This document shows, piece after piece, positions 55,828 to 59,224 of a stretch of 64,000 nucleotides of DNA. A program made the translations under genes and the position numbers. The notes beneath the pieces are model-generated. The model searched no databases. It was not told where the DNA came from and saw only the letters and a program-made list of their open reading frames with translations. The stretch is from Eledone cirrhosa (Eukaryota). The stretch covers positions 28,086,001 through 28,150,000 of the forward strand of contig OZ024743.1 of the NCBI GenBank assembly GCA_964016885.1. The letters are read 5' to 3'. Every line of letters starts with the position of its first letter. Position 1 is the first letter of the stretch.

Positions 55828-56777
55828 TCTTCTCATTCGGAGAATATTAAATTCCCGAGTTCAAATCACAAACTGACGCCATACAAAACCATTCCCAGAT
55901 GAGAGTGAATGATAAAAAAAATAATTCTGTCTGGTACCGTGTGCAAAGACAACAGGCAGGGTGGACAGGTCAATGTCCTGCCACTAGAAATAGCAGCAGA
56001 CCAAACGGCCAAGTTTTATCTCTACCTTAGGGGAGATTAATAATAATAAAGTATGAATTCCTACGTGTAAAAAATACATATAGGGATACAAGTATTATCC
56101 AACAGTATGCTAATGTGGTTCTATGGCGGGTTAATAAATTAACAAGCCAGAAAATATAAAATCAATAAATGAAATCAATATATATATATATATAAATGGA
56201 AGTACAGCATAGTCGAAGCTCGAGCCGCAGCTAAGCCAACGAATGAAATAGCGATGTATACATGAATGTATGTATAGTATATTTGGCAATATACCGTATG
56301 TTTAATTAAAAACATTTAGAAGACCATACGGTATCAGTTTTAAAGGAGTGACTATGTCACTTACTTCTTATATATATATATATATATATATATATATATA
56401 CATATATATACTCTCTCTCTCTCTCTCTCTCTCTCTCTCTCTCTCTCTCACATATATATATATATATATATATATATATATATATATATATATATATATA
56501 TATATATGAAAATATATTAAATGTATAAATTGAGTTAGGAACTCAAAATAGTCTCTTACAACAGAATAGCTCTAAGAAAGAGATATTTCTGAGCCGTATA
56601 TTATAATAGAATATAAAAGAAAAGCGAACACAGATATATAGATATATGTGTTCAAATCGCAAGAGACCTGATTCGCTAAGGTGAAAAGAATACTAACTAT
56701 AGACAATTGGGTTTGCTTGTCTCGATTTAAGAAAAGGTTAAGAAAATAATTACAAACCGGAATTGTGGTAACTACCA

Positions 56778-56855
56778 ATCACTCAGACAACTTGTTGTTG
56801 TTTCGCAAAGTTAATTGTAAATAGAAATACTAATCCAAGCTCATCAGTGGGTGAT
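56778..56855 (-). ncRNA. Hammerhead ribozyme, family F (inverted arm)
   Basis: Reverse complement of 57033-57110. Confidence 0.85.
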
Positions 56856-57032
56856 AAATTAGTATCCTAGACACATCTATGTATGCTATATTTAAAAAAT
56901 AAAACAGCGCACATGGCATCCTAGCGAGCCCCACAAACCCACACCACTAAAAATAGCAGCCAGATTTACTCGAGATTTGCGCTGTTTTATTTTTATATGT
57001 AGCATACATAGATGTGTCTAGGATACTAATTT

Positions 57033-57110
57033 ATCACCCACTGATGAGCTTGGATTAGTATTTCTATTCACAATTAACTTTGCGAAACAACAACAAGTTG
57101 TCTGAGTGAT
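57033..57110 (+). ncRNA. Hammerhead ribozyme, family F
   Basis: atcaccca-CTGATGA-gc..gc-GAA-acaac-aacaa-gttgt-C-tgagtgat; GUC site at 57102. Confidence 0.88.
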
Positions 57111-57528
57111 TGGTAGTTACCACAATTCCGGTTTGTAATTATCTTCTTAACCTTTTCTTAAATCGAGACAATCAAACCCAATTGTCTATAGTTAGTATTC
57201 TTTTCACCTTAGCGAATCAGGTCTCTTGCGATTTGAACACATATATCTATATAACTGTGTTCGCTTTTCTTTTATATTCTATTATAATATACGGCTCAGA
57301 AATATCTCTTTCTTAGAGCTATTCTGTTGTAAGAGACTATTTTGAGTTCCTAACTCAATTTATACATTTAATATATTCGGCTCCGTTAATTTGTTGAGCT
57401 ATTTCAAATGTCGAGTAAACCTGGCTGCTATTTTTAGTGGTGTGGGTTTGTGAGACTCGCTAGGATGCCATGTGCGCTGTTTTATTTTTTAAATATAGCA
57501 TACATAGATGTGTCTAGGATACTAATTT

Positions 57529-57606
57529 ATCACCCACTGATGAGCTTGGATTAGTATTTCTATTCACAATTAACTTTGCGAAACAACAACAAGTTGTCTG
57601 AGTGAT
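57529..57606 (+). ncRNA. Hammerhead ribozyme, family F (second tandem copy)
   Basis: Same motif; GUC site at 57598. Confidence 0.88.
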
Positions 57607-59224
57607 TGGTAGTTACCACAATTCCGGTTTGTAATTATTTTCTTAACCTTTTCTTAAATCGAGACAAGCAAACCCAATTGTCTATAGTTAGTATTCTTTT
57701 CACCTTAGCGAATCAGGTCTCTTGCGATTTCAAGACATATATCTATATATCTGTGTTCGCTTTTCTTTATATTCTATTATAATATTATAATATGAACAAA
57801 TATATATATATATATGTGTGTGTTTGTGTGTGTGGGTGTGTGCGTGTGCGTTTGGGTGCGTTTGTGTGTGTGTCTGTGTGTGCGTGCGTGTGCGCGTGTG
57901 TGTGTGTGTGTGTGTGTGTGTGTGTACATAAATACATATATACTTACATATGGACGCATCCTATCACAACAAGTGTCAATATTTACAGCAACTTGATTCC
58001 ATGGAACGTTTGATTACGATTAAGCTACTCAAAATTATTTGAAACCGGTTATTAGGTAAGTGATTGGGTCTAATGTAACAGGAATATAAAACGTCAGCGG
58101 ATGGAAGAAGAAGAAGGAGGAGGAGGAGGAAAGAGAGGAGGAGGGGAAAGAAGAAGAAGAAGAAGAAGAAGAAGAAGAAGAAGAAGAAGATACATTTGGC
58201 ACCACTGAGTGGGTTGGGCAGTAAAGGCAACATGTGTTCCAGTTGAATTTTGCTATGATTGATTAGTGGATACATTTGATGAATTTATAAAAGAAAAAAA
58301 AATATGAAAAAGGGGCGTAGATTTAGTTTTAATCAGGACTTATAACTTGTCTAGATTTGTGTAATATTTTCATTGGAGATTTCTCCAGTTTTCATTCACG
58401 AAAGATCAGCCCCTAATGCTGTGAATAACATGAAGGGTGTAATTCATCTGAGTATAAACGATGAAAAAATATGTAAATAATAATCCCATAACTTAGATGT
58501 AATTATCTAAGACTTGAATCTTATGTTTGACAAGTGAATTGCTTTCAGTAAAAAAAAAAGCCGATAGTTAATATCACCGCAACTATGTAATATATAATTT
58601 TTTTAAACATAAATATATACCATATACCACAAGGAATGATTGAGGATGGCCTTAGCAGGCATTACTAGCTTTTAAGTTTTAAGAAATAGCCAAGTAGGCT
58701 TTCGAGAGACACATGAAAAAAACTAAACAAAACCATAAAAATAAAGAAAACTATATATCACAAAGATTTAATTTCACTGATATATCATACTTTCTAGCTA
58801 TCCACCTATTTTTTTCTACTTGGAATACATTCTGCTATATGTGACATGCTCGACAGACATATATATATATATATATATATATATATATATATATATATAT
58901 AGAGAGAGAGAGAGAGAGAGAGAGAGAGAGAGAAGAGAGAGAGAAGAGAGGGAGAGAATGTAAGATGGAGGGAGCAAGAAAGAGTGAGAGAGAGTGTGTG
59001 TATGTGTGTTTGTATGCGTATGTTTATACGCATACAAACACACACAAACACCCTCCCCCCCACACACACACACCACACACACCCACACACACACATCTGT
59101 ATATGTTTGTGTGTATGTGTACGCATGTTTGTATATATTTCTTTATGGCGTCATAGAAAAGAAAGAGGCCTGGGGTCGCAAAAATTAAAAAATAAAATAA
59201 AATAAAATAAAATTTCAAATCCAA

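Follow-up and report, generated by a model that had tools for sequence, protein, structure and literature searches.

How does a short repeat that encodes no protein and carries a self-cleaving hammerhead ribozyme reach new chromosomal loci? The question is raised by a 64,000-nucleotide (nt) stretch of the Eledone cirrhosa genome (GenBank assembly GCA_964016885.1, contig OZ024743.1, positions 28,086,001 to 28,150,000 of the forward strand; hereafter the window), in which an insert at positions 56511-57785 consists of a hammerhead-bearing 496-nt repeat with both outer ends facing (TA)n. Our answer, to which we assign a probability of roughly 0.7, is that this protein-free repeat was integrated in trans by the reverse transcriptase (RT) and endonuclease of a Penelope-like element (PLE), most likely of the Hydra clade.

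The plus strand of the insert totals 1.63 units, i.e., one full unit followed by u1-311 of a second one (unit positions, u, are numbered from 56980 = u1; coordinates are collected in the table below), and this second unit is partial, yet its ribozyme is complete. An initial annotation of the locus had described a tandem multimer, of which two direct copies are present and no long multimer. The two identical hammerheads with GUC sites 496 nt apart were recovered as annotated, as was the inverted arm at the (TA)n junction, given there as ~465 base pairs (bp) and measured here as 469 bp; a third hammerhead core, on the minus strand of this arm, had been overlooked. The arm is 94-98% identical to the plus-strand unit, with the (TA)n run on its left a few bases away. 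The claimed lack of coding capacity also holds, with the longest stop-to-stop frames at 68 amino acids (aa): the hallmark of autonomous PLEs, an open reading frame (ORF) for RT and GIY-YIG domains between pseudo-long terminal repeats (pLTRs), is absent from the insert, where no frame exceeds that length. Its type I ribozyme, direct tandem units, and TA junctions place the insert outside the plant long terminal repeat (LTR) retrozymes, which are defined by type III hammerheads within LTRs together with a PBS, a PPT, and a 4-bp target-site duplication (TSD).

The insert belongs to a dispersed family of ORF-less repeats, here called family F, which has sister subfamilies. A genome search with the unit returned 2874 candidates, 40 of them scored, and the sister subfamilies, ~70-85% identical, are ORF-less units of ~497 nt with the same ends. 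The usual upstream neighbor of a unit is another unit. We analyzed 113 family F loci, chosen by similarity or by an intact core and hence no random sample, after de-duplication by hand in which overlapping fetches and two segmental duplicates were dropped. Automatic chaining of arms, which overlooks some short ones, sorted them into 68 inserts of simple head-to-head form, 31 with a single arm, and 14 of complex arrangement.

The ends of these copies are strongly patterned. Among the 167 arm 3' ends scored, all from the simple head-to-head and single-arm classes, 139 fall at u303-317 or u388-399, around two sites (u312 and u397) that lie 85 nt apart, and a TA run adjoins 118 of these 139 defined ends versus 9 of the 28 others. 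Once 20 of the 68 head-to-head inserts had been set aside for at least one undefined end, the two arms used opposite end sites in 45 of the 48 scorable inserts (24 expected; p = 6e-11); the other three have u397 on both arms, a combination never seen for u312. A tail marks one arm only, and partial tandems and inverted 5'-truncated copies both occur in the family. Arm 5' ends are enriched at u425-449, the base of a strong hairpin (22/167 versus 8.4 expected), with a second peak at u1-25 that is possibly an alignment artifact of a poly-T tract; at the cleavage site there is no enrichment (3/167 versus 7 expected). A simple fold-back origin of the arm was rejected because arms often hold sequence without a counterpart in the other arm. 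Classical twin priming of the L1 type on a single linear RNA is a mismatch as well, because the 5' ends of main arms show no fixed position at the other start site. The view that the template is usually a cleaved linear RNA finds no support in the three ends near the cleavage site, a depletion that is not significant (p = 0.07).

The coding PLEs of this genome end in the same manner. The genome is rich in them, and two families retain long uninterrupted ORFs, of 741 aa (L339) and 709 aa (L381); the RT of the former has 61058 genomic candidates. By motif, the L339 and L381 proteins bear the Hydra-clade marks listed in the accessible text of Craig 2021 (PMC8557442), namely, RWR (RWK-like), DKT, a CxCx5C linker, and C-terminal CxxC and CxH. 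Pfam returned no match for the 741-aa Hydra-type protein or for six PLE fragments of the window. Copies of these two coding families, Hydra-A and Hydra-H, likewise end at two sites beside (TA)n, with opposite ends in 4/5 and 14/14 of their head-to-head inserts, respectively, and their tails of 91 nt and about 94 nt are close to the 85 nt of family F. Moreover, an RCTC...GAGY hairpin lies within a few bases 3' of each end in family F and in both Hydra families, the second one reading GCTCC...GAGC; in the Hydra families these hairpins sit at the pLTR/ORF junction. A descriptor of this junction matched 54 of the 130 fetched family F loci (duplicates included), 12/38 Hydra-A and 24/50 Hydra-H loci, and neither of two sets of Neptune-type loci (0/38 and 0/29), with 0-1 matches in reversed controls. 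In addition, alignment of the family F junction with those of Hydra-A gives z scores of 4.0-4.7 (0 of 300 shuffles). Because its copies end as the PLEs of this genome end, family F was very likely integrated by PLE enzymes. The initial annotation had argued for PLE mobilization from the structure of a single insert; the argument now gains a family-wide footprint like that of coding Hydra PLEs (two fixed 3' ends, a tail on one arm, inversion, and (TA)n), although no nucleotide-level parent was found among the PLE families sampled. For the identity of the partner we favor the Hydra clade, with some reserve.

Each insert also appears to record a single template sequence. Copies within an insert diverge by 5.0% when direct (36 pairs) and 4.8% when inverted (88 pairs), compared with 7.6% between loci, and they have rare variants in common at 26/5140 and 67/10035 sites versus 122/227858 for random pairs, an approximately tenfold excess. 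The three copies in the window share rare variants and carry two or three private ones each, and divergence in their three long copy pairs is 1.1-1.8%, where the pooled value within other inserts is ~5%. The shared rare variants and the scarcity of private ones indicate that the insert is young, as had been proposed from the few differences between its copies, and that all of it stems from one template haplotype. Coding Hydra-H shows the same pattern (4/669 versus 304/11988 sites; equal-length pairs only). Therefore, one haplotype per insert is a property of PLEs that is not limited to retrozymes. It is compatible with a circular template, with strand transfer along an RNA that is terminally redundant, or with a single source supplying several RNAs.

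These regularities can be cast as a sequence of steps. A PLE protein, probably of the Hydra type, would bind the junction hairpins of the repeat RNA and nick both strands of a (TA)n tract; one complementary DNA (cDNA) would then be primed at each site (u312 and u397), and the two 5'-truncated cDNAs would join head to head. In a weaker step, the template would be a monomer circle produced by ribozyme cleavage and host ligation, on which one cDNA could extend beyond a single full turn (1.63 units here); an uncleaved tandem transcript is the alternative. We regard the ribozyme-made circle as a tentative proposal. Its most elaborate form would make the family a genomic record of PLE integration on such a circle, where a Hydra-clade dimer reads two tandem GCTC/GAGC hairpins, primes one cDNA per target strand 85 nt apart, and rolls past a full turn, while pairing of loop II keeps the ribozyme of the circle inactive; with all its parts taken together, this scenario is on the unlikely side.

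The ribozyme itself is no product of chance, since 134 sites in the genome fit a 48-nt core pattern with no more than 2 mismatches and 516 fit a looser pattern exactly, with none in either reversed control, and since its paired positions covary. Across 22 related ribozymes from several subfamilies, 95% of the cells pair (20-40% in slid controls), and 4 of the 15 pairs change on both sides, two in stem I and two in stem III; as the aligned ribozymes are mutually related, this covariation counts as support and yields no probability. The initial description of the hammerheads as canonical is right for the core and not for the remainder: in the window, stem II has 2 bp followed by a U.U, with the next position paired in 17 of the 22 aligned relatives, and stem I has a C.A mismatch. 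Rfam reported no hammerhead in the window at gathering thresholds or at E ≤ 10, the latter yielding only hairpin-driven microRNA and small-RNA noise. As modeled, the window ribozyme is weak for its family, with an active fold 6.5-9.7 kcal/mol above the ensemble in a program that is unable to model pseudoknots. A predicted helix between loop II and a 28-nt segment upstream of stem I (segment A) reaches z ≤ -2 in 21 of the 24 ribozymes tested, the cognate pairing being the best in its row for F and F2 and not for F3, F4, and F5. Such a pairing may be an activating pseudoknot or a blocking helix. Cleavage and circularization are, for this family, predictions from sequence; three sequencing runs of one sample behave like genomic contigs and carry no information on expression.

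The best-surviving alternative retains PLE mobilization and dispenses with the circle. It posits a linear, uncleaved tandem transcript (or repeated priming with strand transfer) as the template and an inherited, mostly silent pLTR motif as the ribozyme, and we give it close to an even chance. Much of what it explains weighs at the same time against a circle. The longest arm measures about 920 nt, so that none attains two units, and two strict tandem cores are kept in only 4 of the 113 loci. Arm 5' ends are not enriched at the cleavage site and cluster at u425-449, where transcription possibly starts. The rare stem I mismatch was already present in the template of the insert, whose ribozyme has the unfavorable active fold described above, and subfamily F2 (L153-L175) has spread with a variant core, CAGA replacing CUGA in 6 of the 10 copies shown, across loci. 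In a plus-strand transcript reading through the entire insert, the inverted arm is predicted to pair with all of ribozyme 1, and the locus may release no monomer. Furthermore, in the accessible text of Frangieh 2024 (PMC11167929), unprocessed RNA is the substrate for an anole PLE, for which ribozyme cleavage is dispensable in vitro, and in that of Li, Clavereau and Pollet 2026 (bioRxiv 10.64898/2026.07.22.740005), one of nine Xenopus retrozyme dimers cleaved and eight did not. Against a silent motif, covariation in stems I and III is seen among subfamilies of 70-90% similarity, and hammerheads with a short stem II and a pseudoknot, a configuration beyond the folding program, are described as fast (Perreault 2011, accessible part). 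Also, variants absent from the other sampled loci occur in both tandem copies at L009, L011, and L028, and therefore a recent single-unit bottleneck is needed. The covarying stems, these locus-private variants, and the need to regenerate copies longer than a unit are the grounds for the circle, which is the less certain component of our proposal.

A partner from the Neptune clade or another non-Hydra PLE, with the hairpin likeness due to convergence or chance, seems clearly unlikely to us, although some observations weigh against Hydra. The junction descriptor was devised once these sequences had been inspected, its first, tighter form failed on Hydra-A (0/38), it matched only 1/30 Hydra-G loci, and the Neptune-type control is weak because most of those loci lack a pLTR/ORF junction of their own. 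The alignment support is restricted to family F versus Hydra-A; F2, F3, and F5 reach z ≤ 1.7 against Hydra-A, and F reaches 1.5 against Hydra-H. A blastn search for a coding parent, with the unit and representatives of the subfamilies set against 30 Hydra-A loci, 30 Neptune-B loci, 30 GIY-YIG loci, and a wider set of 20, found none among these sampled PLE families. Matches from this search were rejected as pLTRs, being separate F-like inserts in TA tracts, and local alignment to 19 3' untranslated regions gave three scattered z scores of 3.8-4.7 in 57 comparisons, inconsistent across subfamilies. Neptune-type families of this genome also end at (TA)n, and one of them has a tail. Finally, 6 of the 113 loci, screened solely against a PLE library, fuse family F directly to PLE sequence at irregular points with no TA tract between them. 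Four fusions are Hydra-type (L002, L029, L142, and L281) and two are Neptune-type (L011 and L274), the PLE ORF of L274 lying in sense upstream of the unit. They suggest template switching between PLE RNAs and single out no clade; being confined to six loci, they also speak against the possibility, raised in the initial annotation, that the unit is always attached to a coding PLE. In favor of the Hydra clade, the tail length fits its families, the descriptor matched 0/67 Neptune-type loci, and the Neptune-C tail of ~45-50 nt carries, by eye, no hairpin motif.

An origin of the copies as truncated pLTR remnants left by a coding PLE outside the sample, with tandems arising from local DNA duplication, is very improbable. 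The partial sampling of the PLE families of this genome lends this view some room, as do the shared private variants, which are equally expected from local duplication (local amplification is proposed in the accessible text of Li et al.). Against it, past the tail the sequence of F, F2, F3, and F5 continues into the ribozyme of the next unit with no ORF, and inverted arms with the same private variants and opposite ends are unexplained by DNA slippage.

PLE-mediated integration of family F in trans would bear on how animal retrozymes reach new loci and on how PLEs build pLTRs, tails, and inverted arms. The footprint evidence is countable, consisting of a near-strict opposite-end rule, one haplotype per insert, and hairpins at both start sites. 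The family indicates a partner clade with many uninterrupted ORFs in the same genome, and both trans-mobilization and the circle are testable with a short RNA. If the circle were real, pLTRs, tails, and inverted arms would be explained in one model, and the 496-nt RNA would be a minimal test substrate for the retrozyme and PLE cycles.

The locus lies among other PLE remains. A frameshifted copy of the very abundant Hydra-clade PLE with 61058 genomic candidates occupies window positions 1502-4560 (+), ends in (TA)n, and contains a minimal hammerhead near 4372; a related pLTR end is found at ~55500-55645. The 3' region of a second Hydra-type remnant at 33289-36060 (+) contains a hammerhead-like motif in which stem II (35891-35991) is very long and stem III is palindromic. 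A Neptune-type RT fragment at 43151-43735 (-) represents a family with 6473 candidates that carries a minimal hammerhead of its own, and the 3' ends of Neptune-C (L301-L328) show, by eye, a hammerhead-like motif with a UUGAUAA core variant. Further minimal PLE-type hammerhead-like motifs lie at 52676-52724 (+), 21572-21621 (-), and 16130-16177 (-). The window also holds a 3-kb (AT)n array of ~1530 repeats (27507-30561) and ORF remnants at 5328-6649 (-) and 23919-24545 (+), which we take to resemble a hAT transposase and an LTR-element integrase, respectively. A sigma-70 scan, inapplicable to a eukaryote, stayed at chance level. Elsewhere in the genome, a 30-nt piece of loop II (u71-103) has expanded to ~27 tandem copies inside the inverted arm of one family F locus (L143:688-1492), which is a minisatellite born from a family F element.

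Table. Features of the family F insert and its junctions (window coordinates; u, unit position)
Feature	Positions	Strand	Basis or remark
Left (TA)n target tract	56452-56507		Sequence; part of period-2 array 56369-56507
Inverted arm, 469 bp, u426-496 + u1-398	56511-56979	-	Alignment; tail-bearing end site (u397/398) adjoins (TA)n
Third hammerhead core (CUGAUGA to GUC), one loop II substitution	56786-56847	-	Motif and alignment
Head-to-head arm junction, 2-nt overlap	56978-56979		Sequence and alignment
Complete 496-nt ORF-less unit	56980-57475	+	
Segment A, predicted partner of loop II (57050-57077)	57005-57032	+	Duplex -15.6 kcal/mol, z -4.5
Hammerhead 1, type I, predicted cleavage after C57102	57033-57110	+	Core 57041-57102
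Predicted monomer from double cleavage	57103-57598	+	Fold z -3.9 linear, -4.4 circular
85-nt tail between preferred 3' ends u312 (57291) and u397 (57376)	57292-57376	+	
GCTC...GAGC hairpin directly 3' of end site 1	57294-57319	+	
Hairpin inside tail, 5' of end site 2	57342-57358	+	
GCTCC...GTTGAGC hairpin directly 3' of end site 2, common to two coding Hydra families	57380-57399	+	
Strong hairpin; arm 5' ends cluster near its 5' base (u425-449)	57405-57455	+	
Partial second unit, u1-311, stopping at tail-less site	57476-57785	+	
Hammerhead 2, identical to hammerhead 1, predicted cleavage after C57598	57529-57606	+	Core 57537-57598
Right junction: 8-nt repeat of end, 6-nt filler, (AT)n then (TG)n	57786-57814		Sequence

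We place family F among the non-LTR retrozymes and non-autonomous PLEs, and the idea of a PLE origin of such elements is already in print. As far as the accessible parts of the sources below extend, PLEs were named as candidate mobilizers of metazoan retrozymes by Cervera and de la Pena 2020 (PMC7229834), and Li et al. 2026 use co-occurrence, pLTR homology, and phylogeny in Xenopus to argue that animal retrozymes should be counted as non-autonomous PLE sequences. The novelty that the initial annotation saw in PLE-mobilized animal retrozymes is therefore reduced to their insertion footprints, which that preprint does not analyze: tails, inversions, and targets are missing from its accessible text, where "tail" and "target site" are absent and "inverted" appears only in a reference. 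Unlike the Xenopus case, family F has no homologous parent found, and its insertion footprint has been measured. No integration-footprint analysis of retrozymes was found in the literature searched, with most subscription papers, Repbase, and preprint supplements outside its reach. Both Craig 2021 and Li et al. 2026 call the mechanism unresolved.

Like the metazoan non-LTR retrozymes (PMC7229834), family F consists of ORF-less, low-GC (33%) tandem units with one type I hammerhead each. It departs from those arrays in that most loci have 1-2 units and the circle is predicted, and its ribozyme combines a short stem II with a long predicted pairing between loop II and upstream sequence, whereas the ribozyme is predicted to be free in most metazoan retrozyme circles. 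A ribozyme-made circular template has been proposed for PLEs (Cervera and de la Pena 2014) and for retrozymes (PMC7229834). The non-autonomous Chlamys elements such as MRC1 (PMC8557442) are a further parallel, as non-coding, pLTR-like head-to-tail insertions ascribed to PLEs; they mostly lack hammerheads and have 3' sequence in common with their partners, unlike family F, whose likeness is limited to the junction hairpins.

Partial tandems, an inverted 5'-truncated copy, a tail at one end, and a (TA)n target are shared with Hydra-clade PLEs and PLE inserts, for which this type of footprint is standard (Craig 2021, PMC8557442; Arkhipova 2013, PMC3846280); family F differs from the described PLEs in having no ORF and in its 85-nt tail (91-94 nt in the coding Hydra families of this genome), compared with 30-40 bp. 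Anole Poseidon, predicted to act as a dimer (PMC11167929), is a coding element of another clade with its start sites inside its ORF, whereas family F is ORF-less. In vitro, two internal RT start sites define its tail, and nicking and extension take place on both DNA strands of AT-rich targets, the pattern on which the steps proposed here for family F are modeled.

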